A stretch of DNA of 59,519 bases from Betaproteobacteria bacterium (GTDB taxonomy: Bacteria; Pseudomonadota; Gammaproteobacteria; Burkholderiales; SG8-39). Position numbers and translations under genes: made by a program. The notes below the pieces were generated by a model, which worked only from the letters and a program-made list of their open reading frames with translations, searched no databases and was not told the DNA's origin. Below, piece after piece: positions 39,978 to 57,599 of this stretch. Within the stretch, counting starts at the first letter, position 1, and every line of letters begins with the position of its first letter. Location of the stretch: NCBI GenBank assembly GCA_004298325.1, contig SCUF01000369.1:1-59519 (forward strand). Reading direction: 5' to 3'.

Positions 39978-41042
39978 GTGCGCTTGATCACTCTCCAGGC
40001 CCTTCTTCCGCACCTCGGCTTCGGGCTGGCGCTGGTGCTTCTTTCGGCGGCGCTGACCCGGCTCGCGAGCCGGCGGCTGCGCGTGATGGACGTGCCGAAC
40101 GAGCGCTCGTCGCACGTCGCCCCGGTGCCCAAGACGGGCGGCGTCGCCATCGTGGCGACCTTTCTCGCCGGCATGGTGGCGATCTACTTCTTCGCGCGCG
40201 AGGCGCGCATCGAGGACCGCTACTTCTGGGGTTTGCTCGCCTGCGTCGTGTTTCTTGCGGTGGTTTCGTTCGTAGACGACGTCAACCAGCGCTCGTACGC
40301 GGCGAAGCTCGCGACACAGGTGCTGTGCGCGGTGGCGGTGGTGCTGGCGGGCTTCACCATCGAGCGGCTCTGGATCCCGCTGCGCGGCGAAGCGCCGCTG
40401 GGCTGGCTCGCGTACCCGGTGACGCTTTTCTGGGTGATCGGGCTGACCAACACCTGCAATTTCATGGACGGGCTGGACGGTCTTGCGGCGGGCGTGGCGG
40501 CGATCGCGGGCGCTTTCCTTTGCGCGATCGCGCTGTCGCAGGATAGCGTGTTCGTCTACGCGGCCTCGTACGCGCTGGTGGCCGCGGCGCTCGGTTTTCT
40601 GGTCTTCAATTTTCCGCCGGCGCGCATCTTCATGGGCGATGCCGGGAGCACGTTCTTCGGTTTCGCGTTTGCGGCGCTCGCGCTGATCGGCGCGCACTTC
40701 GACCGGGGGCACCTCTCGTTCTACGTCGTGCCGCTGCTGCTCTTCCAGTTCATCTTCGACACCTTCTTCACCTTCGTGCGGCGGCTGCTGCGCGGCGAGC
40801 CGGTGCATATGGCGCATCGCACGCACCTGTACCAGTTGCTGCAGCGCTCGGGCTACAGCCACCGCGCCGTGACGCTATTTCACTATGCGGTGGCGATCGC
40901 GCAGGGCATCGGCGCGATCGTGCTCGTCAAGCTCGAGCCGCAATACCGCGCCGCGGTGTTCCTGCCGTTTCTCGCTTTCAACGTGCTGTATGCGTGGTGG
41001 GTGCTCCGCCGCGCACAACGCGCCGGACTGGGGTCAGAGTAG
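39978..41042 (+). CDS. Polyprenyl-phosphate N-acetylhexosamine-1-phosphate transferase (WecA/WbpL, MraY-like family)
   Basis: Has VMDVPNERSSH, NFMDGLDGLA and about 10 TM segments. The last five codons (GLGSE-TAG) are REP sequence. Confidence 0.85.
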   Translation: MRLITLQALLPHLGFGLALVLLSAALTRLASRRLRVMDVPNERSSHVAPVPKTGGVAIVATFLAGMVAIYFFAREARIEDRYFWGLLACVVFLAVVSFVDDVNQRSYAAKLATQVLCAVAVVLAGFTIERLWIPLRGEAPLGWLAYPVTLFWVIGLTNTCNFMDGLDGLAAGVAAIAGAFLCAIALSQDSVFVYAASYALVAAALGFLVFNFPPARIFMGDAGSTFFGFAFAALALIGAHFDRGHLSFYVVPLLLFQFIFDTFFTFVRRLLRGEPVHMAHRTHLYQLLQRSGYSHRAVTLFHYAVAIAQGIGAIVLVKLEPQYRAAVFLPFLAFNVLYAWWVLRRAQRAGLGSE

Positions 41043-41094
41043 GGGGTCAGAGTAGGGGGTCAGAGTAGGGGGTCAGAGTCCTTACTCTGACCCC
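41030..41094. repeat. REP array: four tandem 13-nt units (GGGGGTCAGAGTA), the last paired with an inverted copy
   Basis: Forward units lie at 41030, 41043, 41056 and 41069, and the inverted TACTCTGACCCC at 41083..41094. The last pair forms an 11-bp perfect stem with a 4-nt loop (41069..41094). The array sits between the convergent wecA-like and galE genes. Confidence 0.9.
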
Positions 41095-41096
41095 AA

Positions 41097-42107
41097 TCAG
41101 GCGTAGCCGTCGGGATTCTGCGTCTGCCAACGCCAGGCGTCGCGGCACATGTCGTCGAGCCCCAGTTCGGCGCGCCAACCGAGTTCCCGCGCGGCAAGCG
41201 AGGCGTCGGCCCAGAAGGCGGCTATATCCCCTGCACGGCGCGATACAAATTCGTACGGCACCTCCCTGCCGATCAGGCGCGCGAACGCGGTCACCACCTG
41301 CAGTACGGAGAGCCCGCTGCCGGTGCCGAGATTTGCGGTGATCGAGCGCTCGCGCTCTTCCAGGTAACGCAGGGCGGTGACGTGACCGGCGGCGAGGTCC
41401 ATGACGTGAATGTAGTCGCGCACGCCGGTGCCGTCGGGCGTCGGGTAGTCGTTGCCGAAGACGCGCAGCTTCGCCAGCCGGCCGCTGGCCACCTGCGTGA
41501 GGTATGGAAAAAGATTGTTCGGAATGCCGCGGGGATCCTCGCCGATGCGTCCCGAAGGATGCGCACCGATGGGGTTGAAGTAGCGCAGACAGGTATAGCG
41601 GAAATCGGGGTCCGAGCCCGATTGGTCGGCAAGCAGCTGCTCGATCACCAGCTTGGTGCGGCCGTAGGGGCTTTCCGGACGCAGCGGGTGCTCTTCACGG
41701 TAGGGCAGGTATTCGGGCGCGCCGTACACCGTAGCGGACGAACTGAACACGATCCGGCGCACGCCGTGCCGCTGCATCGCCTCCAGGAGCGCGATCGTGC
41801 CGCCGACGTTGTTGTCCCAGTAAAGGAGCGGCTTCTCGACCGATTCGCCCACGGCCTTCAGGCCCGCGAAGTGGACCACGGCCCCGATCGCATGCGCCGC
41901 GAATACGCTTTCGAGGGCGGCGCGGTCTCGCAGGTCCGCGTGCCGGAATTCGATCGTGGCGTCCGGTGCGAGCTCGCGGATGCGCCCGAGCACCGAGGGC
42001 TTGGAATTGCAGAGGTTGTCGACGATGATCAGCCGATATCCCGCCTGCGCCAGCGCTACGCACGTGTGCGAGCCGATGTAACCGAGTCCGCCCGTGACCA
42101 GAATCAT
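41097..42107 (-). CDS. galE: UDP-glucose 4-epimerase
   Basis: Has ILVTGGLGYIGSH and YGRTK (YxxxK). The 336-aa product follows the GalE pattern over its full length. Confidence 0.9.
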   Translation of the reverse strand: MILVTGGLGYIGSHTCVALAQAGYRLIIVDNLCNSKPSVLGRIRELAPDATIEFRHADLRDRAALESVFAAHAIGAVVHFAGLKAVGESVEKPLLYWDNNVGGTIALLEAMQRHGVRRIVFSSSATVYGAPEYLPYREEHPLRPESPYGRTKLVIEQLLADQSGSDPDFRYTCLRYFNPIGAHPSGRIGEDPRGIPNNLFPYLTQVASGRLAKLRVFGNDYPTPDGTGVRDYIHVMDLAAGHVTALRYLEERERSITANLGTGSGLSVLQVVTAFARLIGREVPYEFVSRRAGDIAAFWADASLAARELGWRAELGLDDMCRDAWRWQTQNPDGYA

Positions 42108-42113
42108 TAGAAT

Positions 42114-42193
42114 GGGGTCAGAGTAAAGGGTCAGAGTAAACCGCGTCGCAATCTGAGTTATTGATTTTCAATGACAAATCTTACTCTGACCCC
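42114..42193. repeat. REPIN (two forward REP units plus one inverted unit)
   Basis: GGGGTCAGAGTA lies at 42114..42125, GGGTCAGAGTA at 42128..42138 and TACTCTGACCCC at 42182..42193. Confidence 0.9.
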
Positions 42194-43256
42194 ATTATCG
42201 GCGCTGCTCGACAACGTCAATGTCGAGGCGATGGAGGAGATGCCTTCGCCCGCCGAGGTGGAGGCGCGCGTGCCGCTCACGGAAGGCGCGGCGCGCACGG
42301 TGCTCGCCGGGCGGAACGCGGTGCGCGCAATCCTCGATCGCAAGGATGCGCGGCGTTTCGTCGTCGTGGGTCCGTGCTCGATCCACGACCCCGCGGCGGC
42401 ACTCGATTACGCCGAGCGGCTGCGGCGGCTCGCCGACGAGGTGCGCGAGACGCTCGCGCTCGTGATGCGCGTGTACTTCGAGAAGCCGCGCACCGCGACC
42501 GGCTGGAAGGGTTTCATCAACGATCCGGGCATGGACGATTCGTTCCGCATCGACGAGGGGATCGTGCGCGCGCGCGAGTTGCTGATGCGCCTGGCCGAAC
42601 TGGGGCTTCCGACCGCGTCGGAGGCGCTCGACCCGATCTGCCCGCAGTATCTCTCGGAGCTGATTTCCTGGTACGCGATCGGCGCGCGCACCTCCGAGTC
42701 GCAGACGCACCGCGAGATGGCGAGCGGGCTGTCGGCGCCGGTGGGCTTCAAGAACGGCACCGACGGCGGGCTCGAGGTGGCGGTCAACGCGATCCGCTCG
42801 GCCGCCTCGCCGCACGGCTTTCTCGGCGTCAACCAGGCGGGCAAGACGAGCGTGATCCGCTCCAGGGGCAACCGCCACACGCACCTGGTGCTGCGCGGCG
42901 GCGGCGGACGCCCCAATTACGACACGGTGAGCGTGCGCCTCGCGGAGAATGCGCTCGCCAAGGTGGGACTCGCGCCCAATATCGTGATCGACTGCTCGCA
43001 CGTCAACTCGATGCGGGACCACGCGCTGCAGCCGCTCGTGTTCAACGATTGCGTGCACCAGATCATCGAGGGCAACCGCTCGATCGTCGGCATGATGCTC
43101 GAATCGAACCTCGAGGCGGGCAACCAGCCGATCCCAGAGGACCTCTCGAAACTGCGTTACGGCGTCTCCGTCACCGACCCGTGCATCGACTGGGCCACCA
43201 CCGAGGAAGTCCTGCGCCGCGCGCACCGCGACCTGATCAAATTGGGGTCAGAGTAA
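42171..43256 (+). CDS. aroG: 3-deoxy-7-phosphoheptulonate (DAHP) synthase, class I
   Basis: Has VVVGPCSIHD and FEKPRTATGWKGFINDP. The feedback isozyme type cannot be determined. The start codon and the first ~8 codons lie inside a REPIN, and the last codons (LGSE-TAA) are REP sequence. Confidence 0.9.
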   Translation: MTNLTLTPLSALLDNVNVEAMEEMPSPAEVEARVPLTEGAARTVLAGRNAVRAILDRKDARRFVVVGPCSIHDPAAALDYAERLRRLADEVRETLALVMRVYFEKPRTATGWKGFINDPGMDDSFRIDEGIVRARELLMRLAELGLPTASEALDPICPQYLSELISWYAIGARTSESQTHREMASGLSAPVGFKNGTDGGLEVAVNAIRSAASPHGFLGVNQAGKTSVIRSRGNRHTHLVLRGGGGRPNYDTVSVRLAENALAKVGLAPNIVIDCSHVNSMRDHALQPLVFNDCVHQIIEGNRSIVGMMLESNLEAGNQPIPEDLSKLRYGVSVTDPCIDWATTEEVLRRAHRDLIKLGSE

Positions 43257-43331
43257 CTTTTGTTTCGATTGTTCAGGTACTTGCGTGAATCGCAGTAAAG
43301 CTTCCGGGTCACCACGGTTTACTCTGACCCC
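43244..43331. repeat. REPIN (inverted REP doublet, 64-nt spacer)
   Basis: GGGGTCAGAGTA lies at 43244..43255 and TACTCTGACCCC at 43320..43331. Confidence 0.9.
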
Positions 43332-44103
43332 AATATGCCTCGCGTTTCTGCTCAATGTGCCGATGGCGATCGCCGCGCCTGATATTGCGGATCTGTGGGA
43401 CTTCGATCGGCCCGACCTGTCGGAGGAGCGCTTCCGCGCGGCACTCGGCGATGCGGCAGGAGATGCGCGGCTCGAGCTGCTGACGCAGATCGCGCGCAGC
43501 TACTCGCTGCGCGCGCGGTATGAGGACGCTCACAGGCTGCTGGACGAGATCGAGCCGCAGCTCGCCGCGGCGGGGCCGGCGCCGCGCGTGAGGTATCTGC
43601 TGGAGCGCGGGCGCACGTTCCGGTCGGGCGGCGCCCCCGACAAGGCTGGGCCGTTGTTCGCCGAAGCCTGGGAACTCGGCCGCACGAGCGGCCTCGACGG
43701 CCTCGCCATCGATGCCGCGCACATGGTTGCACTGGTCGAGCCGAAGACCGAGGATCGGCTGGCGTGGAATGAGCGCGCGCTGGAACTTTCGCGGCGCGCG
43801 ACCGAGCCGTATGCGCGCAATTGGCAGGCGTCGCTGCACAACAATATCGGTTGGTCGCTGCACGACGCGGGCCGATTTGCGGAGGCCCTCGTTCATTTCG
43901 AAACGGCGCGGAAAGAACGCGAGCGCCGCAAGCAGGTGAACGAGATTCGCATCGCGAAGTGGGCCGTGGCGCGCTGCCTCCGGTCGCTCGGCCGTCGCGA
44001 CGAGGCGCTCGCCATTCAACTCGCGCTCAAGGCCGAGTGGGCGGCCGATGGCAAAGTGGATCAGTCCGTGATGGAGGAACTCGGGCTGTTGGGTATCCGG
44101 TAG
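43285..44103 (+). CDS. Hypothetical exported protein, TPR-like helical repeats
   Basis: Has a signal-peptide-like N-terminus (RSKASGSPRFTLTPICLAFLLNVPMAIA-AP) that is partly encoded by the REPIN arm. The body is helical and Ala/Leu/Arg-rich. The GTG start is uncertain. Confidence 0.5.
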   Translation: MNRSKASGSPRFTLTPICLAFLLNVPMAIAAPDIADLWDFDRPDLSEERFRAALGDAAGDARLELLTQIARSYSLRARYEDAHRLLDEIEPQLAAAGPAPRVRYLLERGRTFRSGGAPDKAGPLFAEAWELGRTSGLDGLAIDAAHMVALVEPKTEDRLAWNERALELSRRATEPYARNWQASLHNNIGWSLHDAGRFAEALVHFETARKERERRKQVNEIRIAKWAVARCLRSLGRRDEALAIQLALKAEWAADGKVDQSVMEELGLLGIR

Positions 44104-44118
44104 CTCAGGGGTTATAAT
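44089..44118 (+). promoter_or_regulatory. Candidate sigma70-type promoter of the second vapBC operon
   Basis: TTGGGT (44089..44094), an 18-nt spacer and TATAAT (44113..44118) lie 28 nt upstream of the vapB ATG. A TAATcATTA palindrome overlaps the -10 element. Confidence 0.35.
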
Positions 44119-44145
44119 CATTACCCGGTATTACTTGAGACGACC

Positions 44146-44379
44146 ATGGATGCAACGACGGTCACGAGCAAGGGTCAGGTTACGATTCCCAAGGAAGTGC
44201 GCAGGCGCTTCGGCATTCGCCAGGGAAGCCGGGTGGAGTTCGCCATCGTCGGCAACCGCATCGAAATGCGGCTGGCCAGTCGGCCGCTGGAGACGGGGAA
44301 GAGCGGTTACGGAATGCTGAGAAGCCGGCGGCGCGCGGCGCCGGCGGATCTCGACCCGGCTTCGCTCATCAAGCGCTAG
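44146..44379 (+). CDS. vapB: AbrB/SpoVT-type antitoxin VapB
   Basis: The 77-aa product has the KGQVTIPKEVRRRFGI motif. It lies upstream of the PIN gene. Confidence 0.8.
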   Translation: MDATTVTSKGQVTIPKEVRRRFGIRQGSRVEFAIVGNRIEMRLASRPLETGKSGYGMLRSRRRAAPADLDPASLIKR

Positions 44380-44388
44380 CCCGACGCC

Positions 44389-44805
44389 ATGATCGGGCTG
44401 GACACCAATGTCCTTGCGCGATACTACGTTGCCGATACGGCAGACGCCGAGAGTGCTCGCCAGCGTGAAGCGGCTCGACGGCTGATCGACTCGGGCGCGC
44501 CGTTGGCGGTATCCAAGACCGCGCTGCTGGAACTCGAGTGGGTGATGCGCGGCTATTACGAGTTCGATCCCGGGCGTATTTTGAGGGCCTTGCGCCATTT
44601 GCTGGCGCTCCCGTACGTCGAAATCGAAGACCGTGCCGCAGTAGAGGCTGCCTTGTCCCACTACGAGAGCGGGCTCGATTTTGCCGACGCCATGCATCAT
44701 GCCGCCTATCGGCAATGCCGCGCGATGGCGACCTTCGACGATCGCAGATTCGCACGCCGCGCGAAGCGCATGGGGCTGACGCCACCGGTCGTGCAGCCGA
44801 CGTGA
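44389..44805 (+). CDS. vapC: PIN-domain toxin VapC
   Basis: Has an MIGLDTNVLARYY N-terminus and conserved acidic residues (D5, E.., D..). It is 138 aa. Confidence 0.85.
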   Translation: MIGLDTNVLARYYVADTADAESARQREAARRLIDSGAPLAVSKTALLELEWVMRGYYEFDPGRILRALRHLLALPYVEIEDRAAVEAALSHYESGLDFADAMHHAAYRQCRAMATFDDRRFARRAKRMGLTPPVVQPT

Positions 44806-44837
44806 TGTTTGGCCGGTTCTAGTTCCCTAACTGTAAT

Positions 44838-44849
44838 GGGGTCAGAGTA
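44838..44849. repeat. Single REP unit flanking the 3' side of the RAYT gene
   Basis: An exact GGGGTCAGAGTA lies 26 nt from the RAYT stop codon. Confidence 0.85.
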
Positions 44850-44874
44850 ACTTTTTCCTCGCAACGACAAAGAG

Positions 44875-45603
44875 TTAGCGCGGAAGCTGCCGTTGCGGCG
44901 ATCTCTGTGAGGTGACTCCCAAGCGCGCGATGCGGGGTTCGCGCGCACGACGCAGTGCCGCGAGGACATCGGCGTTGACCCGGGCACGGAACTCTTCCGA
45001 ACCAAGGGGCCGTCCCTTGTTCAGGCAGAAGCGTATCGAATCGAGATCCTGGTGCGAAATGCCGTCGGCGAACAATTCGCCATAGGCCCGTCTGCATTCG
45101 GACGGTGTTCGTCCCAGTCGCAGATAGCACTCGTGCTCAGTGACGAGCGGGTCGCGGTGCGCGCCGGTGTAGTGCCGGTAGCTCGACCACGGGTAGTCCA
45201 GAGCCGACGCCGTCATCCCCGCGCGCACGGGGTTGTTCTCGATGTAGCGCTGGCAGACGAGGAAATACCGCTCGCTGTCGATCACGCTGGAACGGAAGCG
45301 GCCTTCCCAAAGCGTACCGGTGCGCCCGTGGATCTTGTTGAAGGTGCGTACATAGCGGCGCCCGAGATGCTGCATGAGGCCTGACACGGCGTGGGGTTCC
45401 TGCGGCGTGACCAGCAGATGCACGTGGTTCGTCATCAGCACGTAGGCATGGACCGAGCAGGCATACCGTTCGATTGCGCGGCGCAGGCAAGCGAGGTAAC
45501 GCCGGAAATCGTCGTCGCACGCAAAACATGCGCCGCGGTTATTGCCCCGCTGCACGACGTGGACCGGCACTCCCGCCAAGGCTAATCGCGGCGCTCGTGC
45601 CAT
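44875..45603 (-). CDS. REP-associated tyrosine transposase (RAYT; IS200/IS605 TnpA-like Y1 HUH enzyme)
   Basis: Has the HUH motif in LMTNHVHLLV, GRTGTLWEGRF, and the catalytic-Tyr motif QRYIENNPVRAG followed by YPWSSY. REP units in opposite orientations flank it on both sides. Confidence 0.85.
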   Translation of the reverse strand: MARAPRLALAGVPVHVVQRGNNRGACFACDDDFRRYLACLRRAIERYACSVHAYVLMTNHVHLLVTPQEPHAVSGLMQHLGRRYVRTFNKIHGRTGTLWEGRFRSSVIDSERYFLVCQRYIENNPVRAGMTASALDYPWSSYRHYTGAHRDPLVTEHECYLRLGRTPSECRRAYGELFADGISHQDLDSIRFCLNKGRPLGSEEFRARVNADVLAALRRAREPRIARLGVTSQRSPQRQLPR

Positions 45604-45659
45604 GACTGCTCGCCTCCCCCTATCCCCATGCCGCCTTCAACGCGTAGCGGCGGAAAAGG

Positions 45660-47351
45660 TTACTCCGACCCCTGACTCTGACCCCCTACTCTGACCCCAC
45701 CTTGCCATTCGATTTTGCCTTCCGCGAGATCGCGCGCCAGCGCGGCGGGATCGCGCTCGCGCGGATCGCCGTAGCCGCCGCCGCCGGCGGAGTCCATGGT
45801 GACGACGTCGCCGGGCGAGAGGCGCGTGAGGCCGTAAGGGTTGCCGGGCTGGTCGTTGACGAGGAACCGCGCGCGCGCGCCGGGTGCGCCGCCGAAGAGG
45901 CCTTCGGGCGGCAGGCTGAAACGCCCCGACTGCATCGCGAGGTGCACCGGCCCGAGCGGTGCGTGCGCATCGCTCGGCACGCGGAAGACTTCGCGCCGGC
46001 CAAGCGCGCCGCGCTGCTTGCCCGCGCCGCCCGATCCCGGCAGGAGCTCGCGCCGCTCGACGATGAGCGGCGAATCGCTTTCGAGAATCTCGACCGGCGT
46101 ATTGGCGCCGTTCGCCGGGAAGATGAACGAGCCCTCGCCGTCGCGCGCGGCGCCCGCGCCCATGCCGCCGCCGCGAATGAGCACGGTATGGAACGGCTCG
46201 CCGTCGCCGCGCCGGCCGTAGAACACCTGCATCGTCGCCGGCGTGCCGCCGCTTGCCGCGACCACGCGCTGCGGCAGCGCCTCAGCCAGCGCGCGGTAGA
46301 TGATCTCGGTCATGAAGTGGCCGATCTGCATGCGCGCCGCGACCGCCGCCGGAAAGCGGCAATTGACCACCGTGCCCTCGGGCGCGATCAGATGGATCGG
46401 CGCGGCGGCGCCGTCGTTATTGGGAATGTCCGGATCGAAGATGCTCTTCACCGCCATGTGCACGTAGGCGTAGGTGAAGTTGTAGACCACGTTGCCGCCC
46501 CAGTCGACCTGCGGCGACGAGCCCGTGAGATCGACCTGGATGTCGCTGCCATTGATCGTGACCGCGCAGCGGATGACGACGGCGGGCGCGCCTTCGGTCT
46601 GTTCGATGTGTCCTTCGGCGCGGTACACGCCCGCCGGTGCGCGCGCGATCGATTCGCGCAGGCTGCGCTCGCTGCGCGAAATGATTTCCTCCGCGAGGTC
46701 GTCGAGCGCCTCGAGCCGGTACTCCTCCAGCATGCGCACGATTCTCTCGGCGCAGACGTGATTCGCCGCGATCTGCGAGCGGATGTCGCCATTCACCTGG
46801 TCGGGCGTGCGCACGTTGGCGCGGATCATCGCGAGCACCCCTTCGTTCAGCTGCCCGGCCTCGTAGAGCTTGACGAGCGGGATGAAGAGCCCCTCCTCGA
46901 ACACGTCGTGGTTGTCGGAGGAGACGCGCCCGCCGATGTCCGAGTGGTGCAGGATGCAGGCGGTGAACGCGGCGAGCCGGTCGCGATGGAAGATCGGCGA
47001 GAGCACGCAGACGTCGTTCAGGTGCCCTGCGAGTGCCCAGGGGTCATTGGTGATGTACACGTCGCCGGGGCGGAAACTTTCAGGCGGGAGCTTGCGCACC
47101 AGGTTCTTGATGCCGAGTGCCATCGCGCCCGACTGCCCCGGCGTGGCGAGCGTGCCCTGCGCGAGCTCGCGCCCTTGCCGATCGGTGAACATGCAGGTGT
47201 AGTCGTGGCCATCGCGCAGGATGCTGGAGAACGCCGTGCGCGCGACGGCCGCATCGGCCTCGTCGACGATCGAGATCAGGCGCCGCCAGAGGATTTCGAG
47301 GGTGATGGGGTCGAATTTTGGCTTCGGCGCTTGGACTTCGCGTTGGTTCAT
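45660..47351 (-). CDS. hyuB: Hydantoinase B / oxoprolinase-family protein (ATP-dependent lactamase/carboxylase beta-type subunit)
   Basis: Has DPITLEILWRRLISIVDEA at the N-terminus and the family pattern throughout. The start is the ATG at 47351. The tail GGVRVGGQSQGSE-TAA is REP-encoded. Confidence 0.85.
   Translation of the reverse strand: MNQREVQAPKPKFDPITLEILWRRLISIVDEADAAVARTAFSSILRDGHDYTCMFTDRQGRELAQGTLATPGQSGAMALGIKNLVRKLPPESFRPGDVYITNDPWALAGHLNDVCVLSPIFHRDRLAAFTACILHHSDIGGRVSSDNHDVFEEGLFIPLVKLYEAGQLNEGVLAMIRANVRTPDQVNGDIRSQIAANHVCAERIVRMLEEYRLEALDDLAEEIISRSERSLRESIARAPAGVYRAEGHIEQTEGAPAVVIRCAVTINGSDIQVDLTGSSPQVDWGGNVVYNFTYAYVHMAVKSIFDPDIPNNDGAAAPIHLIAPEGTVVNCRFPAAVAARMQIGHFMTEIIYRALAEALPQRVVAASGGTPATMQVFYGRRGDGEPFHTVLIRGGGMGAGAARDGEGSFIFPANGANTPVEILESDSPLIVERRELLPGSGGAGKQRGALGRREVFRVPSDAHAPLGPVHLAMQSGRFSLPPEGLFGGAPGARARFLVNDQPGNPYGLTRLSPGDVVTMDSAGGGGYGDPRERDPAALARDLAEGKIEWQGGVRVGGQSQGSE
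45661..45698. repeat. Three tandem inverted REP units flanking the 5' side of the RAYT gene
   Basis: TACTCCGACCCC lies at 45661..45672, GACTCTGACCCC at 45674..45685 and TACTCTGACCCC at 45687..45698, giving a 13-nt period. The array also encodes the last 13 codons of hyuB. Confidence 0.9.
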
Positions 47352-47368
47352 ATTTGAAGTTCCCCGTT

Positions 47369-47407
47369 CTGCCGGCTTGCCGCGAGATTCATGCGGCAAG
47401 CCGGCAG
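47369..47407 (-). other. Perfect 15-bp stem / 9-nt loop hairpin in the hyuA-hyuB intercistronic spacer
   Basis: CTGCCGGCTTGCCGC (47369..47383) and GCGGCAAGCCGGCAG (47393..47407) are exact reverse complements. No U-tract follows on the transcribed (minus) strand. Confidence 0.8.
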
Positions 47408-47442
47408 ATCTATGAGAATCAAAAAAGGCGCTGACCGATGCA

Positions 47443-49524: not shown

Positions 49525-49555
49525 GACGCGCCTCCTTGACGCTTGGCGGCTGAAA

Positions 49556-49568: not shown

Positions 49569-49578
49569 AGTACACGTC

Positions 49579-50241
49579 ATGTCCCCGGCCCTGCAAGTCC
49601 TCGAGCGCGCCCTGCCGCTCGGCGACCGCGTCTACGCGACGCTGCGCGACTACCTGCGCGCGGGGCGCCTCGCGACCGGGCATCCGCTGCAGGAAGCCGC
49701 GCTCGCGGCGCAGCTCGGGGTGTCGCGCACGCCCGTGCGCGAGGCCCTGGCGCGGCTCGCGAGCGAGGGGCTGGTGGTGGCCGAGGGCCGCAGCTTCACG
49801 GTCCCCGCGCTCACCGACGCCGACATCCGGGACATCTACGAGCTGCGTTTCCTGCTCGAGCCGCAGGCGCTGAGCGAAATCGCGCAAAGCCGGCCCGGCC
49901 GCAAGGAGCTCGCGCCGCTCCGGAAGGCGCTCGACGACATGGCCGCTGCGCACGAAGACGGCGACGGCGCCGAATTCATGGAAGCCAATTACCGCTTCCG
50001 CGCCGAGTGGATGGCGCGGGTGCCCAACCGGCGCCTCGCGCGCGCGATCGAGCTCTACGCCGATCACGTGCGGTACTTGCGCGCCTTCACGCTCGGCGAG
50101 GCCGGGGTGCGCGCCAGGGTGCTGAAGGGGCTCAAGCGCCTGGTGGCGACGCTCGAAGCCGCAGACGGCGAGGGCGCCGCCGCGGCGATGCTCGCGCATC
50201 TCGACACAGCCAAGAGGATCCTGCTGGAAAGGAAGGCATGA
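49579..50241 (+). CDS. GntR-family transcriptional regulator with FCD-type C-terminal domain
   Basis: Has the wHTH segment LAAQLGVSRTPVREALARLASEGLV and a helical C-terminal domain. The start is the ATG at 49579. Confidence 0.85.
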   Translation: MSPALQVLERALPLGDRVYATLRDYLRAGRLATGHPLQEAALAAQLGVSRTPVREALARLASEGLVVAEGRSFTVPALTDADIRDIYELRFLLEPQALSEIAQSRPGRKELAPLRKALDDMAAAHEDGDGAEFMEANYRFRAEWMARVPNRRLARAIELYADHVRYLRAFTLGEAGVRARVLKGLKRLVATLEAADGEGAAAAMLAHLDTAKRILLERKA

Positions 50242-50242
50242 C

Positions 50243-51448: not shown

Positions 51449-51457
51449 AAGTCATCG

Positions 51458-52972
51458 ATGGACCTGTCGGCCTGGATTGAGCGGCACGCGGCGTTCGCGC
51501 CGGCGAAGACCGCGCTGCGCTTCGGCGACGAGGCGATCGGCTACGGCGCGCTCGCGCAGCACATTGCGCGCGTGGCGGGGGCGCTCGCCGCGCTGGGCGT
51601 GAAGCCGCGCGATGCGGTGGCCTATCTCGGCCTCAACCATCCGGACGCGCTCGCGCTGCTTTTTGCCTGCGCGCGGCTCGGTGCGATGTTCATGCCGCTC
51701 AACTGGCGCCTCGCGCCCGCGGAGCACGCGCGCATGCTCGCCGATTGCCCGCCGCGGCTGCTCTACGTGGAAGGCGCGTTCGCCGCGCACGCGAAGGCGA
51801 TTACGGCGATCCCGCAGTCGACCCGCCAGCTGCCGCTCGATCGCGAGACGTGGCGTGTCGCCGCCGGCACGGTGCCGCGCGAGGGCGACGAGAGCTCGCC
51901 GCTGCTCCTGTGCTACACCTCGGGCTCGACCGGCGCGCCGAAGGGCGTGGTGCTGACGCAGCGCGCGCTGTTCTACAACGCGGTCAACAGCAGCCACATG
52001 CACGATCTGACGAGCGCCGACCGCGTGCTGACGACGCTGCCGCTGTTTCACGTCGGCGGGCTCAACATCCAGACCACGCCGGCGCTGCACGCGGGTGCCA
52101 CGGTCACGTTGCATCCGAAGTTCGACCCGCTCGCGGCGCTCGAGGCGATCGAGCGCGAGCGCATCACCCTCGCCGTGCTGGTGCCGGCACAGCTCCAGGC
52201 GATGATGCAGACACCGCGCTGGCAAAGCGCCGACCTTTCGAGCCTGCGCATGATCACCACCGGCTCCACGATCGTCCCGGCAGCGTTCGTGAGCAAGGTG
52301 AACGCGCGCGGCGTGCCGCTCATCCAGGTCTACGGCTCCACCGAGACCTGCCCGATCGCGAGCTACGTGCGCGCCGCGGATGCCGAGCGCAAGGCCGGCT
52401 CGGCCGGCGTGCCGGCACTGCATTGCGAGATCCGCATCGCGGGCGACGACGGCCGCGAGCTGCCGGCGGGACGCGACGGCGAGATCCTGGTGCGTGGCCC
52501 GAACGTGGCGACGGGCTACTGGAACGCGCCGGAACTGAGCGCGCAGACCTTTGCCGAGGGCTGGTACCGCTCGGGCGACATCGGCCATTTCGACGCCGAA
52601 GGGCATCTCCATGTCGTGGCGCGAAAGAAGGACATGATCATCTCGGGCGGCGAGAACATCTACCCGGCGGAGCTGGAGAACATCCTGCTCGAAGCGCCCG
52701 CGGTGCAGGAGGCCTGCGTCGTGGGGCGGCAGGACGAGCGCTGGGGCGAGGCCGTGGTCGCGGCGGTGGTGCTGAAGGCCGGCAGCCGCATGAGCGAGGC
52801 CGAGGTGATGGCGCTCTTCCAGGGACGGATCGCGCGCTACAAGCAGCCGCGCGAGGTGCGCTTTCTGGCGCAGCTGCCCAGGAGCGCGCTCGGCAAGATC
52901 CTCAAGGACGAGGTGCGCACGGCGGTCGCGCAGGCGGCGGCCGGGCCGGCGAGGCGGGCGCATGGACTTTGA
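51458..52972 (+). CDS. AMP-dependent acyl-CoA synthetase/ligase
   Basis: Has the AMP-binding motif LCYTSGSTGAPKGVVLT, plus YGSTET, GDIGHFDAEGHLHVVARKKDMI and a conserved C-terminal K. Confidence 0.85.
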   Translation: MDLSAWIERHAAFAPAKTALRFGDEAIGYGALAQHIARVAGALAALGVKPRDAVAYLGLNHPDALALLFACARLGAMFMPLNWRLAPAEHARMLADCPPRLLYVEGAFAAHAKAITAIPQSTRQLPLDRETWRVAAGTVPREGDESSPLLLCYTSGSTGAPKGVVLTQRALFYNAVNSSHMHDLTSADRVLTTLPLFHVGGLNIQTTPALHAGATVTLHPKFDPLAALEAIERERITLAVLVPAQLQAMMQTPRWQSADLSSLRMITTGSTIVPAAFVSKVNARGVPLIQVYGSTETCPIASYVRAADAERKAGSAGVPALHCEIRIAGDDGRELPAGRDGEILVRGPNVATGYWNAPELSAQTFAEGWYRSGDIGHFDAEGHLHVVARKKDMIISGGENIYPAELENILLEAPAVQEACVVGRQDERWGEAVVAAVVLKAGSRMSEAEVMALFQGRIARYKQPREVRFLAQLPRSALGKILKDEVRTAVAQAAAGPARRAHGL

Positions 52973-54095
52973 ACTGCGCGACGAGCAGCGCGCCATCCGG
53001 GAAGCCTTCGCGCGCTTCAGCGACGAGCGCATCGCGCCGCGTGCCGCCGCGCTCGATGCGGCGCACGCTTTCCCGCGCGAGCTGTTCGGCGAACTCGCGG
53101 CGATGGGGCTGTTCGCCATGCGCTACCCGGAAGACGCGGGCGGCAGCGGCACCGGGCTCACCGAGTTCTGCCTCGCGCTGGAAGAGATCGCGCGCGGCTC
53201 GCTGTCGCTCGCCGGGTGTGCGGCGATGCAATCGCTCATGGGAACGAAATTCCTGCACATGCTCGGCAATGCGGACGTGCTCGAGCGCCTGTTCAAGCCG
53301 GCGCTCAGGGGCGAGAAGATCGGCGCCATCTGCATGACCGAGCCGAACGCGGGTTCCGACCTCGAAGGCATCGCCACCACGGCGAAAAAGGTCGCGGGCG
53401 GCTACCGCCTGAACGGGCAGAAGACCTGGGTCACCTCCGCCCGGGTGGCGGACTTCTTCACCGTGTTCGCCCGGGCGGGCGAGGCGAAGAAACTCACCAT
53501 CTTCCTGGTAGAGCGTTCGTCCGCCGGCCTCGCGATCGGGCGGCAGATCGAGAAGATGGGCGTCTGGGCGATGCCGACCTCCGAGCTCGCCTTCGACGAC
53601 TGCTTCGTGCCCGACGGCCTTCGCCTGTCGCGCGAGGAAGGCGACGGCGAAGGGCACCTGAGGAAGACGCTTGCCGAGATCCGCATCATCACCGGCGCGA
53701 TGGCCAACGGCGTGGCACGCGCGGCGCTCGAAGCGGCGCTGCGCTACGCGGGCGAGAGAAAGCAGTTCGGCAAGCCGATCAACCGCTACCAGGCGATCCA
53801 GATGAAACTGGCGGAGATGGCCACCGGGCTCGAGGCGGCGGTGCAGCTCGTGTACCGCGCCGCCTGGCTGCACGACGCGGGCAAGCCCCACCACAAGGAG
53901 GCGGCGATGGCGAAGCTCTTCGCGAGCGAAACCGCGGCACGCGTCTGCGACCAGGCCGCGCGCGTGTTCGCCTCCTACGGCTACGCCATGGAATATCCCG
54001 TGCAGCGCTACCTGCGCGACGTGCGCTTCACCCTCATCGGCGGCGGCACGAGCGAGATCCTCAAGCTCATCATCGCCAAGGAGCTGAGCCAATGA
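52962..54095 (+). CDS. Acyl-CoA dehydrogenase
   Basis: Has ICMTEPNAGSDL, a QFGKPI segment, and a C-terminal YEGTSEI-like GGGTSEILKLIIAKEL. Confidence 0.9.
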   Translation: MDFELRDEQRAIREAFARFSDERIAPRAAALDAAHAFPRELFGELAAMGLFAMRYPEDAGGSGTGLTEFCLALEEIARGSLSLAGCAAMQSLMGTKFLHMLGNADVLERLFKPALRGEKIGAICMTEPNAGSDLEGIATTAKKVAGGYRLNGQKTWVTSARVADFFTVFARAGEAKKLTIFLVERSSAGLAIGRQIEKMGVWAMPTSELAFDDCFVPDGLRLSREEGDGEGHLRKTLAEIRIITGAMANGVARAALEAALRYAGERKQFGKPINRYQAIQMKLAEMATGLEAAVQLVYRAAWLHDAGKPHHKEAAMAKLFASETAARVCDQAARVFASYGYAMEYPVQRYLRDVRFTLIGGGTSEILKLIIAKELSQ

Positions 54096-54107
54096 ACCCG
54101 CCAAAAA

Positions 54108-54153
54108 GGGGTCAGGACCCTTTTTCGATATGTGCTAATTGGGTCCTGACCCC
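54108..54153. repeat. Variant palindromic element related to the REP family
   Basis: GGGGTCAGGACCC (54108..54120) and GGGTCCTGACCCC (54141..54153) are exact reverse complements with a 20-nt spacer. They share the GGGGTCAG core with the main REP. Confidence 0.8.
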
Positions 54154-54162
54154 TTATTCCAT

Positions 54163-54555
54163 ATGAACCGGCCGATCAAGGTGGTGGTCGCGAAGCCCGG
54201 GCTGGACGGCCACGACCAGGGCGCGAAGGTGGTGGCGCGCGCGCTCATGGACGCCGGCATGGAAGTGATCTATACCGGTCTGCGGCAGACGCCGGAAGCC
54301 GTGGCGCGCATCGCGCAGGACGAGGACGCCGACGTGATCGCGCTTTCGTCTATGGCGGGCTCGCACGTGCCGTTCTGCGAGAAACTCAAGCCGCTCCTCG
54401 AGCAGGCGGGGCTTTCCGACAAGCTCTGGGTGATCGGCGGCAACCTGCCGAAGCAGGACCACGCGCGGCTGAAGGAACTGGGGTTCCGCGGCGTGTTCCC
54501 CTCCAGCTCGCGCCTGGACGACATCGTCAATTTCGTGAAGGCGAACGTGGCATGA
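54163..54555 (+). CDS. Cobalamin-binding small subunit of a split acyl-CoA mutase
   Basis: Has the DxHxxG motif in GLDGHDQGAKV and SSMAGSH. It is 130 aa, starting at the ATG at 54163. Confidence 0.85.
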   Translation: MNRPIKVVVAKPGLDGHDQGAKVVARALMDAGMEVIYTGLRQTPEAVARIAQDEDADVIALSSMAGSHVPFCEKLKPLLEQAGLSDKLWVIGGNLPKQDHARLKELGFRGVFPSSSRLDDIVNFVKANVA

Positions 54556-56159
54556 ACGATCGACTGAAACTGCGGCCGGTGACGAACGAATCCGGCATCG
54601 AGATCCAGCCGCGCTACGGCGCCATGGACGTGGAGGCGAGCGGCGGCTTCGGCTTTATCGGAGAGCCGGGCGAGTACCCCTTCGTGCGCGGCATCCACCC
54701 GCAGATGTACCGCCAGCGGCCGTACACGATGCGCCAGTACACCGGCTTCGGCAATCCGGCCGACACCAACCAGCGCTTCAAGTACCTGATCGCGAACGGG
54801 CAGACGGGCCTCAACGTGGCCTTCGACCTGCCCACGCAGTGCGGACTGGATTCGGACGATCCGCTCGCGCACGGCGAAGTGGGCCGGGTCGGCATGGCGG
54901 TCGACACGTTGCGCGATTTCGAGATCGCGTTCGATGGCATCGACCTCGACAAGATCACGGTGTCGCTCACGGTGAACGGCGCCGCGCCGCAGCTGATCGC
55001 GATGTACCTCGCGATGGCGGAAAAGCGCGGCTACGACGTGGCGAAGCTGCGCGGCACGGCACAGAACGACATCCTCAAGGAATTCATCGGCCGCGGCACC
55101 TGGATCTACCCGGTCGAGCCCTCGGTGCGGCTGGTGGGCGACACGATCGAGTATTGCGCGCGCCACGCGCCCAAGTACAGCCCGGTGTCGGTGTGCGGCT
55201 ATCACATCCGCGAATCCGGCGCCAACCCGGTGCAGGAGATGGCCTACGCCTTCTGCATCGCCAGGGCCTACGCCGACGACGCGCTCGCGCGGGGGCTCGA
55301 TATCGACGCGTTCGCCGGGCGCCTGTCTTTCAATTTCAACGTCTTCGGCAGCATCTTCGAGCAGGTTTGCAAGTTCCGCGCCGCGCGCGGGCTGTGGGCG
55401 AAGATCGTGAAGGAGCAATACGGCGCGAAGCAGCCCGAGTCCGGGTGGCTGCGGATGATCGCGGGCGGCGGCGGCGGCGGGCTCACCTTCGAGCAGCCCG
55501 AGGTCAACATCGTGCGCGGCGCGTACTACGCGCTGATCGCGGCGCTCGGCGGCGCGCAGACCATGGCGCTGTGCTGCTTCGACGAGGCCTATACCATCCC
55601 GACCGAGTACGCGCAGCGCATATCGCTGCGCACGATGCAGCTCCTGATCGAGGAGATGGGGCTCGCCGACACGGTGGATCCGCTCGGCGGCTCGTGGTTC
55701 GTAGAGACGCTCACCAACCAGATGCGGCAGAAGATGGAAGAGACGATGGCCGAGGTCGATGCGCAGGGCGGCATCGTCAAGCTCGTCGCCGAGGGCGCGA
55801 TCCAGGCCAAGGTCTCGGCGCAGGCCTACCGCATGCAGCGCGCGATCGAGTCGGGCGAGTTCCGCAAGGTCGGCGTCAACTGCTACCGCAACGAGCAGGC
55901 CGACGACCTCGAAGTGCAGATGCACCCGTACAAGGAAGAGGACACGCGGCGCCAGATTGCAAGCCTGGAGGGCGCGCGCGGCGCGCGCGACGTGAGGCGC
56001 GTGGGCGAAGCGCTGGCGAAGGTCCGTGGCGCGGCCGAAGGCGGGGCCAACGTCATGCCGGCGGTAGTCGAGGCGGTGAAGGCCTACGCCACGGTCGGCG
56101 AAATCACCCAGCAGCTCGCCGGCGTCTACGGCCGCTATCGCGAACCCGTACGCTTCTAA
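54552..56159 (+). CDS. Methylmalonyl-CoA-mutase-family catalytic (large) subunit
   Basis: Has MRQYTGFG, NQRFKYLIANGQTGLNVAFDLPTQ, GTAQNDILKEF, CGYHIRESGA and VDPLGGSWFVE. It overlaps the small-subunit gene by 4 nt. Confidence 0.9.
   Translation: MNDRLKLRPVTNESGIEIQPRYGAMDVEASGGFGFIGEPGEYPFVRGIHPQMYRQRPYTMRQYTGFGNPADTNQRFKYLIANGQTGLNVAFDLPTQCGLDSDDPLAHGEVGRVGMAVDTLRDFEIAFDGIDLDKITVSLTVNGAAPQLIAMYLAMAEKRGYDVAKLRGTAQNDILKEFIGRGTWIYPVEPSVRLVGDTIEYCARHAPKYSPVSVCGYHIRESGANPVQEMAYAFCIARAYADDALARGLDIDAFAGRLSFNFNVFGSIFEQVCKFRAARGLWAKIVKEQYGAKQPESGWLRMIAGGGGGGLTFEQPEVNIVRGAYYALIAALGGAQTMALCCFDEAYTIPTEYAQRISLRTMQLLIEEMGLADTVDPLGGSWFVETLTNQMRQKMEETMAEVDAQGGIVKLVAEGAIQAKVSAQAYRMQRAIESGEFRKVGVNCYRNEQADDLEVQMHPYKEEDTRRQIASLEGARGARDVRRVGEALAKVRGAAEGGANVMPAVVEAVKAYATVGEITQQLAGVYGRYREPVRF
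55464..55481 (+). repeat. (GGC)5GGG triplet microsatellite encoding Gly6 inside the mutase large subunit
   Basis: It reads directly as ggc ggc ggc ggc ggc ggg, in frame (residues 305-310). Confidence 0.9.
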
Positions 56160-56161
56160 TT

Positions 56162-56240
56162 GGGGTCAGAGTACGGGGTCAGAGTCAAGCGAACGAGAGG
56201 TAACTATATGACAGATCAACAAAAATCTTACTCTGACCCC
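56162..56240. repeat. REPIN (two forward REP units plus one inverted unit, 42-nt spacer)
   Basis: GGGGTCAGAGTA lies at 56162..56173, GGGGTCAGAGTC at 56175..56186 and TACTCTGACCCC at 56229..56240. Confidence 0.9.
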
Positions 56241-57095
56241 ATTTCCTATGCGGCGCCACGCACGCTCGACGAGGCGGCGGCGCTGCTGAGCGCGGGCAAC
56301 GTCACGGTGCTCGCGGGCGGCACGGACCTCATGCCGCAGACGCAGTCGGGCAAAGTGAAATTCAAGCCGCTGCTGATGAACGTCCGGCGGGTGGCCGGAT
56401 TGGGCGGCATCGCCGAAGCCGCAGGAACGATCCGCATCGGCGCGCTCGCCACGATCACGGAATTGCTGCAGAGCGAGCTGGTGCGCGACCGCCTGGGCAT
56501 CCTGTGGCAGGCGTGCGAGCACTTCGCGAGCGACCAGATCCGCAACGCGGCGACGATCGGCGGCAACGTCTGCAATGCGTCGCCCGCGGGGGACACGCTG
56601 GTGCCGCTGCTCGCGCTGAATGCCCGCGTGCTGCTCGTCAGCAAGCCGAACGGGGCGCTCGTGGAGCGCCGCCTGCCGCTCGCGGGATTCTTCGTCGCGC
56701 CGGGCCGCTCGCAGCTCGCCGCGTCCGAATTGCTTGCTGCCGTCGAAGTGCCGCTGCCGCCGCGCGGCTTCGCAGGCGAATTCTTCAAGTTCGGCACGCG
56801 GCCCGGGCTCGACATCTCGGCGATCTCGATGGCGCTCGGCGGCGTGCGCGAGAACCGGACGCTGCGCGACGTGCGCGTCGCCTTCGGTGCCGTCGCGCCG
56901 ACCCCGATCCGCGGCCCGAAAACCGAGGCCGCGCTCGAAGGCCGCACGCTCGATGCTGCGGCGATCGAAACCGCGGTTGCGGCGGCGCTGGCCGACATCC
57001 GCCCGATCAGCGACGTGCGCGCCACCGACTGGTACCGGCGCGAGCTGGTCGGCAACCTACTGCGAAGGATGCTTTCCCATGTCTGCGAACGTTGA
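56208..57095 (+). CDS. Molybdenum hydroxylase FAD-binding (medium, CoxM-like) subunit
   Basis: Has VLAGGTDLMPQ and an FAD_binding_5-type pattern. The ATG at 56208 lies inside the REPIN spacer, 7 nt after GAGAGG. The N-terminal MTDQQKSYSDP is REPIN-encoded. Confidence 0.85.
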   Translation: MTDQQKSYSDPISYAAPRTLDEAAALLSAGNVTVLAGGTDLMPQTQSGKVKFKPLLMNVRRVAGLGGIAEAAGTIRIGALATITELLQSELVRDRLGILWQACEHFASDQIRNAATIGGNVCNASPAGDTLVPLLALNARVLLVSKPNGALVERRLPLAGFFVAPGRSQLAASELLAAVEVPLPPRGFAGEFFKFGTRPGLDISAISMALGGVRENRTLRDVRVAFGAVAPTPIRGPKTEAALEGRTLDAAAIETAVAAALADIRPISDVRATDWYRRELVGNLLRRMLSHVCER

Positions 57096-57570
57096 AATCG
57101 ACTTCACGCTGAACGGCGTCGGGCGGCGCGTCTCGGTGACCCCCGGGATGAGCGCGCTCACCCTGCTGCGCGACGTGCTCGACCTCACCGGCACCAAGTA
57201 CGGCTGCGGCGAGGGCGAATGCGGCGCCTGCACCATCCGCGTCGATGGCGTGACGGTGAATTCCTGCCTCATGTTCGCGGTCGACTGCGATGGCCGCGAG
57301 GTGGTGACGATCGAAGGTTTGGCGTCCGATCCGCGCGCGCAGCGCCTGCAGCAGAAATTCGTGGAGCACGGCGCGGTGCAGTGCGGCTTCTGCACGCCGG
57401 GTCTGGTGATGCAGGCGAATCACCTGCTGGACGTGCATCCCCATCCCGGCGCCGCCGAAGTCCAGCGCGGCATCGAAGGCAATCTCTGCCGCTGCACCGG
57501 CTACAAGAAAATCGTCGAAGCGATCCAGGACTCGGGGTCAGAGTCCGTTAGATCGGAGCTAACTCTATGA
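57079..57570 (+). CDS. Molybdenum hydroxylase [2Fe-2S] (small, CoxS-like) subunit
   Basis: Has CGEGECGACT, CGFCTPG and CRCTGY. The start is the ATG at 57079. The tail SGSESVRSELTL-TGA is REPIN-encoded. Confidence 0.9.
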   Translation: MSANVEIDFTLNGVGRRVSVTPGMSALTLLRDVLDLTGTKYGCGEGECGACTIRVDGVTVNSCLMFAVDCDGREVVTIEGLASDPRAQRLQQKFVEHGAVQCGFCTPGLVMQANHLLDVHPHPGAAEVQRGIEGNLCRCTGYKKIVEAIQDSGSESVRSELTL

Positions 57571-57599
57571 GCGCAATGGAAAAAACTTACTCTGACCCC
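57534..57599. repeat. REPIN (inverted REP doublet, 42-nt spacer)
   Basis: GGGGTCAGAGTC lies at 57534..57545 and TACTCTGACCCC at 57588..57599. Confidence 0.9.

Follow-up and report, generated by a model that had tools for sequence, protein, structure and literature searches.

Seven gene junctions, spread over 16.6 kb of a 59,519-nt stretch of betaproteobacterial DNA (GenBank assembly GCA_004298325.1, contig SCUF01000369.1; hereafter the window), are occupied by copies of a short repeat, GGGGTCAGAGTA. We consider these copies to be the dispersed terminal inverted repeats (TIRs) of a TIRtron with a single-copy gene for a Y1/HUH transposase of the TIRYT type, a reading to which we assign a probability of about 0.8. 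TIRtrons were described as tyrosine transposases (TIRYTs) flanked by inverted repeats that share GGGGWSAS, and not by repetitive extragenic palindromic (REP) sequences, and their TIRs are also found elsewhere in genomes as singles, dimers and clusters (Di Nocera, 2013; PMC3733652). The family described here is a TIRYT/TIRtron repeat family, probably of the Group 1/subclass 2.1 type, a kind that is known but barely studied: in the searchable literature TIRYTs are mentioned only by Di Nocera (2013; PMC3733652) and Quentin (2018; PMC6006769), and a literature search for the core sequence returned, among the matches listed, eukaryotic qPCR-primer papers and no bacterial repeats.

Searching both strands of the whole window for GGGGTCAGAGTA with at most one mismatch gave 19 sites, all inside positions 41030-57599, compared with a chance expectation of 0.06 copies (maximum 2) in 100 dinucleotide-preserving shuffles; these are exactly the sites listed in a first-pass annotation of this DNA. 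The core of the family is GGGGTCAGA followed by GTA. Its copies occur singly, in tandem arrays with a 13-nt period (41030/43/56/69, 42114/27, 45661/74/87 and 56162/75) and in inverted doublets with spacers of 2, 43, 64, 42 and 42 nt, and on reading the loci we obtained the same period and the same five spacers that had been given in that annotation. One of its details had to be amended, namely an 11-nt truncated unit at 42128: a repeat unit is present, and it is a copy with one mismatch, AGGGTCAGAGTA, that starts at 42127. Looser matches amount to three sites with two mismatches and 24 with three, scattered as expected by chance and never paired or arrayed, so that the family is sharply bounded. 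Every repeat cluster is located at a gene boundary, as had been proposed (Table 1), and the copies are not strictly extragenic, several of them overlapping the last or first codons of genes.

Within the repeat-bearing region lies the gene of a 242-residue protein with a Y1_Tnp domain, whose H60-V61-H62 (the HUH motif) and catalytic Y120-x3-N124-P125 are invariant across 27 homologues. Taking reference sequences from Additional file 5 of Di Nocera (2013), we found this protein to be 44-52% identical, over ~210 residues, to five published TIRYTs (psu2716, swd1484, pfs148A, sml1152 and sml4509; E values from 1e-57 to 1e-74) and 22-27% identical to the classical REP-associated tyrosine transposases (RAYTs) eco b228, pfs4255 and sml2816 of E. 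coli, P. fluorescens and S. maltophilia, respectively. A cognate RAYT in the middle of the region had been predicted; the Y1_Tnp gene is indeed there, bracketed by inverted copies, and its product is not a classical RAYT. As in the known TIRtrons, the protein has a length of ~230-250 residues and the signature MARxPR...QRGNNR...LMTNHVHLL...GTLWEGR...YIExNPVRAG...WSS...LGS, the gene is bracketed by inverted GGGG[AT][CG]A[CG] repeats, of which the downstream one often extends into the 3' end of the coding sequence, and further copies, found here in the window and in the contigs L122 and L128 of a relative, are single, dimeric or clustered. The start of the window core, GGGGTCAG, matches GGGGWSAS. 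Twenty of 26 TIRYTs belong to subclass 2.1 of the TnpA-Y1 proteins, which equals the Group 1 RAYTs of Bertels and has been linked with the consensus GGGG[AT][CG]A[CG] (Quentin, 2018; PMC6006769), and from its similarity to the TIRYTs we infer that the window transposase is also a member of subclass 2.1. Members of this subclass are long proteins with the class-2 Y motif Y---NP and a helix-turn-helix (HTH)-like C-terminal extension (Bac_DnaA_C, HTH_23 or HTH_28; PMC6006769); the window protein has a C-terminal extension of ~100 residues with a conserved ...G.PLGS..F... block.

An IS200/IS605 insertion sequence was rejected as the identity of this gene, the NCBIfam IS200 model scoring 20.9 bits (cutoff 55), and so was IS200/IS605-like mobility, given that the gene keeps one slot, between the hydantoinase B and TPR genes, in the window, L122 and L127. 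The last ~40 residues of the transposase (44875-44995, minus strand) do not align with those of the L122 protein, despite ~90% identity of the flanking DNA, and, with only 69% protein identity overall between the window and L122, the transposase diverges faster than its neighbours.

The association between gene and core is conserved in homologues. In contigs encoding proteins 90% (L127), 69% (L122), 60% (L124), 55% (L125/126, with slightly diverged cores) and 46% (L036) identical to the window transposase the layout is that of the window, with a direct core that precedes the gene by ~60-70 nt and an inverted one placed at its stop codon or just beyond it. We further assembled an unbiased set of 80 metagenome loci, picked by protein homology alone (45-56% identity), in which a core with at most three mismatches was present in 59/78 upstream and 52/69 downstream flanks, compared with 14/294 control windows; a GGGGTCAGA-type core thus precedes the gene, and an inverted one lies at its stop codon or across it, in ~75% of the homologue loci, compared with 5% in the controls. 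The comparison of such flanks in related genomes had been suggested by the first-pass annotation, and inverted cores bracket the homologous genes too. The part conserved in these 80 loci is the 9-nt GGGGTCAGA; the final three bases of the core vary (CTC is the commonest, followed by TCA, GCC, GCA, GTA and others), and a TGA within the inverted core serves as the stop codon of the transposase gene itself in 18 loci. A tblastn search with the transposase against 120 doublet loci gave one match (L036), which fits a single-copy gene and is uninformative alone. In the interval that separates the transposase start codon from the core upstream of it we also noticed an 18-nt block, GCGTTGAAGGCGGCATGG, kept in L122 (about 9962-9979) and L127 and partly in L124 and L125, thus down to ~55-60% protein identity; this block is a possible promoter, operator or 5' untranslated element of the transposase gene.

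The repeats had initially been described as REPs and REPINs (REP doublets that form hairpins), and part of this description holds, since they constitute a dispersed, hairpin-forming family tied to an IS200-like tyrosine transposase. As single strands the doublets fold at -27.5 to -46.9 kcal/mol (z from -2.6 to -7.4) with stems of 12-16 bp, and the unpaired arrays do not fold comparably strongly. Such folding, together with a Y1 gene located between inverted copies and with the REP-associated tyrosine transposase model (REP_Tyr_transpos) as top NCBIfam match of its product, is what would also be observed in a classical REP/REPIN population served by a Group 2/3 RAYT, in which imperfect palindromes of 20-40 nt tagged with GTAG accompany a RAYT of ~150-190 residues. 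We regard this as improbable, because the 12-mer has no internal palindrome, neither a GTAG nor a CGTC head is present at the repeat loci of the window, and the enzyme, longer than those RAYTs, groups by sequence identity with TIRYTs and hence probably with subclass 2.1/Group 1 proteins; besides, flanks in the window seldom pair (flank-to-flank stems are mostly of 1-4 bp), and the REP_Tyr_transpos match is below the NCBIfam cutoff. The likeness to the REPIN/RAYT systems of Pseudomonas and Enterobacteria (PMC3116915; PMC2817692) includes a single-copy Y1 gene between its repeats, spaced inverted units that together form one long hairpin, retention by vertical descent at orthologous sites and, in many other genomes, doublet halves that are themselves small hairpins. 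Unlike in those systems, the RAYT is of another group, the GTAG head is missing, tandem 13-nt arrays are present, the conserved part is located in the loop of the half-hairpin and not in its stem, and the halves in the window are mostly bare cores. The likeness is therefore one of architecture and not of membership of the Group 2/3 systems.

The distribution of the doublets was addressed by scanning GTDB species genomes for the exact pattern GGGGTCAGAGT-N36-66-ACTCTGACCCC, which retrieved at least 120 stretches and placed exact doublets in over 100 genomes, which belong to Gammaproteobacteria, Betaproteobacteria and Gemmatimonadota. Most are from Gammaproteobacteria (Lysobacterales, Halieaceae, Pseudomonadales, Chromatiales, Kangiella, Marinicella and others), the Betaproteobacteria include Massilia, Collimonas, Rhodocyclaceae and others, and Gemmatimonadota account for five loci among the matches listed, one of them on a closed Gemmatimonas chromosome. 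One locus each carries the label Rhodothermales, Planctomycetota or Caulobacteraceae, and these singletons should be taken with caution, as they come from metagenome-assembled genomes. Several genomes have doublets at far-apart chromosomal positions, which shows that the repeat is dispersed. In 133 doublets from elsewhere the palindrome extends past the core on both sides, each genome having its own extensions, which are complementary to each other (as in GATCAAA-core-AACTTGATC ... GATCAAGTT-core'-TTTGATC). In these halves the outer flank tends to pair with its own inner flank, leaving the core in a loop of ~15 nt; a half-hairpin stem of at least 5 bp is formed by 34% of the halves and by 9% of shuffled-partner controls.

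Many terminal repeats of the Tn3 family start with GGGGTC. Since the core also begins with GGGGTC and the doublets resemble short elements bounded by TIRs, we considered that they could be miniature inverted-repeat transposable elements derived from a DDE transposon with such ends and mobilised in trans, the Y1 gene being a bystander. We find this highly improbable: the palindrome extends past the core, the outer flanks being inverted repeats and not direct target duplications, solo cores and 13-nt tandem arrays would be atypical, no DDE transposase was found in this region of the window by the gene map and Pfam, and the core flanks a Y1 gene in ~75% of the unbiased loci. Equally doubtful is that the copies are operator sites of a DNA-binding regulator or intrinsic terminators, as a short conserved sequence paired at gene boundaries, and the hairpin 41069-41094 between convergent genes, could be taken to indicate. 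Terminator-like sites number 11 (9.3 expected), a promoter scan likewise gave nothing above background, no doublet has a U-tract, and the core is found beside unrelated genes in several phyla, brackets the Y1 gene and has copies inside coding ends.

By analogy with known enzymes, we infer that the transposase moves or maintains the repeats by a single-stranded DNA mechanism. The enzyme would cleave single strands at the core or beside it and join them again, as IS200/IS605 TnpA and E. coli TnpA-REP do, and such cutting would, over time, seed single cores, inverted hairpin doublets and short tandem arrays. Copies would survive only where they do little harm, that is, at gene boundaries; those in the final codons of a gene simply provide a new stop codon, and in this lineage two doublets have replaced compact native operon junctions, so that their loops now hold the Shine-Dalgarno sequence and the start codon of the next gene. 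The E. coli REP/BIME (bacterial interspersed mosaic element) system with TnpA-REP (4ER8; PMC3479197; PMC8266576) would be alike in HUH/tyrosine cleavage of single-stranded DNA beside a hairpin and differs in recognition sequence and repeat anatomy, and none of the PDB chains matches the window protein in sequence.

Several observations weigh against the TIRtron reading. The REP_Tyr_transpos match of the transposase, at 72.7 bits, does not reach the NCBIfam equivalog cutoff of 80, a PDB sequence search with the protein gave no relative, and Pfam searches of its 103 C-terminal residues (E <= 10) did not detect the HTH reported for subclass 2.1. Half-hairpins are weak in the window, where many copies are bare cores in 13-nt arrays, and these arrays could have arisen by replication slippage with no enzyme involved. 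The copy counts for the lineage of the window come from contigs, and the breadth of the GTDB scan is partly ascertainment, as exact cores were required. Lastly, no insertion unique to the window was observed among the repeats, each comparable doublet being also present in relatives, so that there is no direct sign of recent transposition; what varies between relatives is only array copy number and doublet/solo status.

The relative that contributes L122 and L128 (assembly GCA_040960765.1) is syntenic with the window over 35.6-59.5 kb, with 86-96% DNA identity, and has 16 core copies in the ~33 kb of these two contigs. Doublets are shared at the DAHP synthase/TPR, epimerase/DAHP synthase, methylmalonyl-CoA-mutase-like (MCM)/coxM and coxS/coxL junctions, and the first of these has an orthologous counterpart in L127 as well. 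In ten explicit orthologous core pairs 3/120 nt differ (2.5%), compared with 36/346 third codon positions of the DAHP synthase gene (10.4%) and 37/188 loop positions of the doublets (19.7%; Fisher's test, p = 0.006 for cores versus third positions and p = 3e-6 for cores versus loops). The cores are thus kept constant, by selection, enzyme recognition or conversion, and the loops drift. The array upstream of the transposase has three copies in the window, two in L127 and one in L122, and the array at the epimerase/DAHP synthase junction has two, at least four and one among the window and its relatives. In L122 (13732-15709) a gene for a 639-residue Polysacc_synt_2 protein, flanked by two doublets, is located between the epimerase and GT4 genes; at that site the window has only the 4+1 array 41030-41094, and a 69%-identical partial homologue is found at window positions 2-1099. 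This difference suggests a deletion or rearrangement between cores.

One frame of the core contains TAA or TAG, and its opposite strand contains TGA, so that copies landing in the last codons of a gene give it a new stop. Considering all loci, 33/387 cores provide the TAA or TAG that ends an open reading frame (ORF) of 150 codons or more, and a TGA on the opposite strand comes from a further 17, with no comparable spike of stop codons at any other offset inside the element. In the window, the GT4, DAHP synthase and hydantoinase B genes end in a core read as GGG-TCA-GAG-TAA (or TAG), which gives the peptide end GSE*: the first core of 41030..41094 supplies the TAG of GT4 (...GLGSE*), the core of 43244..43331 supplies the TAA of DAHP synthase (...KLGSE*), and the hydantoinase B gene runs through all three cores of 45661..45698, the last of which supplies its TAA (...GGQSQGSE*).

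Start codons are also located in the loops. The loop of 56162..56240 holds GAGAGG-N8-ATG (56208), 21-22 nt from either arm, and the inverted core at 56229 encodes YSDP within the coxM-like N-terminus (MTDQQKSYSDPISYAAPRTL...). At 57534..57599 the coxS-like ORF passes through the left core and ends at the TGA of an ATGA (57567-57570) whose ATG, preceded by GGAG and again 21-22 nt from either arm, starts the coxL-like ORF, and the inverted core at 57588 encodes YSDP in the coxL-like N-terminus (MSAMEKTYSDPKF...). Given that no usable later start is available and that conserved N-terminal residues directly follow the arm, translation of both genes must begin inside the element. Both loops hold GGAGCTAAC..TATGA, which suggests that they are copies of one another. 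At two further doublets, the called DAHP synthase start (ATG 42171) lies inside the loop of 42114..42193, whose inverted core would encode codons 4-8, and GTG 43285, in the loop of 43244..43331, opens the TPR ORF with a signal-peptide-like N-terminus; both starts are uncertain, because alternative downstream starts exist, a possible one for DAHP synthase being the in-frame ATG 42231.

Relatives at different distances show these junctions with and without the element. In L129, more distant and with the same operon, there is no core in 12.9 kb, the TAA of MCM abuts the ATG of coxM (TAA|ATG) and coxS overlaps coxL, these being the only junctions seen to be free of the element, whereas both junctions have full doublets in L128 and in the window. 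In L130 one cox junction has a solo inverted core (MTNSDPNS...), and the other (coxS/coxL, 11321-11416) has a nested double doublet, in which cores recur within the coding sequence with an in-frame period of 15 nt, giving YSDPKYSDPN, compared with 13 nt outside coding sequence. The coxS-like stop differs among three genomes, being the TGA of ATGA in the window, a TAA in the loop in L128 and the TAA of the core in L130. The coxM-like homologues of ~70-73% identity have uniformly 288 residues and the N-terminus MxxIxxY.AP.SLEEAA, and nearly all those listed with at least ~75% identity have 290-301 residues and the core-encoded motif, mostly as M(T/I)E(Q/H)QKSYSDPxSYAAPRTLDEAA, in a few cases as the shorter MTNSDPNSYAAP and in some as the doubled YSDPKYSDPK, with in-frame duplications in P0131 and P0133. 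From these comparisons it is apparent that, at two operon junctions, a doublet has replaced the compact native junction and the downstream gene starts inside it. The arm falls within an ORF of 150 codons or more at 16/30 doublet sides in the clade of the window and at 40/304 elsewhere, figures to be read as a contrast only, given that the script picks the wrong frame at the DAHP synthase doublet; with no long ORF leaving through the arm at 264/304 sides elsewhere, the donation of start codons is not a general property of the family.

Whether the doublets have acquired a role in expression has to be weighed here. Whatever their origin, they may now be cis-regulatory elements of the host, RNA hairpins at cistron boundaries that couple translation or stabilise mRNA segments, and be kept by selection for that role and not by transposase activity, a reading to which we give limited credence. 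The stems of 12-16 bp at -27 to -47 kcal/mol, the central position of both cox-like AUGs in a 42-nt loop behind a good Shine-Dalgarno sequence, the sequence shared by the two loops and the use of three different element-borne stops by coxS in three genomes are all consistent with it, as are the retention of elements at orthologous junctions (in coxM homologues down to ~75% identity) and the higher conservation of cores relative to third codon positions. This conservation is, however, equally explained by transposase recognition or gene conversion, most doublet sides in other genomes have no long ORF through the arm, L129 has the same operon and no elements, and no terminator signature was observed. 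A known structured RNA was rejected, as Rfam gave no match at E <= 1 on either strand of 40900-57800.

A related and equally tentative proposal combines this role with the TIRtron origin. Group 1/TIRYT transposases might maintain REPIN-type populations on a 9-12-nt cross-phyla core, some doublets of which would have been co-opted as portable intercistronic cassettes. Such a cassette would contain stops in three frames (TAA in the core, TAA in the loop and TGA within ATGA) together with a Shine-Dalgarno sequence and an AUG centred in a 42-nt loop, whose length would match a ribosome footprint. Two paralogous copies might have replaced the mutase/cox-like operon junctions in this way, and it is possible, if unlikely, that they were kept because they set the coupling of translation or the stability of mRNA segments.

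Other small repeats are known to overlap coding sequence or to extend into it, examples being the Rickettsia palindromic elements and the Neisseria Correia elements. GTAG REPs donate TAG stops to flanking ORFs (PMC3733652). The family in the window resembles all of these in that its ends give stops to flanking ORFs and some of its copies are translated; it differs in that the doublet loop also gives a Shine-Dalgarno sequence and a start codon, at two junctions of one operon, where it replaced a TAA|ATG junction and an overlapping one that are both still seen in L129. For subclass 2.1, the authors could not find any REP-like sequences near the genes (Quentin, 2018; PMC6006769), and for Group 1 RAYTs the reported counts of flanking 16-mers were low (Bertels, 2017; PMC5581495). 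Unlike the published subclass 2.1/Group 1 systems, the window has REPIN-like hairpin doublets, 13-nt arrays and fusions to gene ends and gene starts, and no C-terminal HTH was detected in its transposase; unlike the published TIRtrons, for which only an 8-nt consensus is available, it has a 9-nt GGGGTCAGA, and 11-12 nt of GGGGTCAGAGTA are found exactly in more than 100 genomes. Of most interest are the 9-12-nt core, which crosses phyla, the presence of REPIN-like doublets beside a transposase of a group described as having none, and the replacement of operon junctions by doublets that provide stops and starts. RAYT-type domesticated transposases are widespread, and Group 1, the largest and most broadly distributed, has been described with no REP-like partners or with small families; the core offers a concrete oligonucleotide substrate for work on binding and cleavage. 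The repeats also affect annotation, both in the calling of starts and stops and through small artefactual peptide motifs (three GSE C-termini and two YSDP N-termini), and the window, together with the element-free L129, illustrates how operon junctions evolve by means of repeats.

The first 41 kb of the window (1-41029) have no copy of GGGGTCAGAGTA at the same threshold, on either strand, in agreement with the earlier impression that this part is empty. A near absence of intergenic space had been offered as one cause and does not account for it, since this part, free of copies, comprises ~33 gene junctions and apparently non-coding DNA amounting to several kb, whereas the remaining 18.5 kb have 15 junctions, seven of them occupied, and ~0.8 kb of non-coding DNA (Fisher's test, p = 9e-5). 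Many genes at ~8-30 kb have a GC content at third codon positions (GC3) of 0.61-0.76, compared with 0.85-0.92 in the repeat-bearing part, and GC dips to 0.56 (stretches of 0.56-0.59) within the polysaccharide cluster of ~8.4-30.4 kb, a composition typical of glycan loci that are exchanged. L122 has a doublet after the polysaccharide-export gene, where the window runs directly into Wzz. It is plausible, judging from composition, that the glycan cluster is foreign, frequently exchanged or recently acquired.

Table 1. Repeats, transposase and genes of the repeat-bearing part of the window. Genes were placed with a GC3-guided ORF map and Pfam scans; fold and z refer to the single strand.
Feature	Position	Strand	Context	Fold (kcal/mol)	z
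Four direct cores (13-nt period), 2 nt, one inverted core	41030..41094		Between the convergent GT4 and epimerase genes	-46.9	-6.9
Two direct cores, 43-nt loop, inverted core	42114..42193		Between the divergent epimerase and DAHP synthase genes	-36.3	-5.6
Doublet, 64-nt loop	43244..43331		DAHP synthase end/TPR gene start	-37.9	-4.2
Single core, inverted relative to the upstream ones	44838..44849	+	25 nt beyond the transposase stop; downstream flanking repeat		
18-nt conserved block GCGTTGAAGGCGGCATGG	45626..45643	-	After the upstream core, ahead of the transposase start		
Three tandem cores, 13-nt period	45661..45698	-	~60 nt upstream of the transposase start		
Two direct cores, 42-nt loop, inverted core	56162..56240		MCM/coxM-like junction	-27.5	-2.6
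Doublet, 42-nt loop	57534..57599		coxS-like/coxL-like junction	-33.5	-4.0
Y1/HUH tyrosine transposase, TIRYT type, 242 aa	44875..45603	-	Pfam Y1_Tnp, E 2.8e-14		
GT4 glycosyltransferase	39978-41042	+			
Epimerase	41097-42107	-			
DAHP synthase	42171-43256	+			
TPR protein	43285-44103	+			
AbrB/MazE-type antitoxin	44146-44379	+			
PIN-domain toxin	44389-44805	+			
Hydantoinase B	45660-47399	-			
Hydantoinase A	47443 to about 49524	-			
GntR/FCD regulator	49543-50241	+			
Thiolase, acyl-CoA ligase, acyl-CoA dehydrogenase, B12-binding subunit, MCM	50243-56159	+			
coxM-like	56208-57095	+			
coxS-like	57079-57570	+			
coxL-like	57567 to window end	+			

Some neighbouring genes deserve a comment. 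The 933-residue ORF at 47443-50244 (minus strand) is over-extended; the opposite strand encodes the GntR/FCD regulator, likewise in L122, and hydantoinase A probably starts at ATG 49524 (the L122 protein has 693 residues). The toxin-antitoxin pair (44146-44805, plus strand) sits between the TPR gene and the transposase, beside the downstream flanking core, and is an insertion specific to the genome of the window, since the transposase directly abuts the TPR gene in L122 and L127. An AAA_14/DUF4143 ATPase gene (38759-39946, plus strand) is found between the polysaccharide-export and GT4 genes, where L122 has none.

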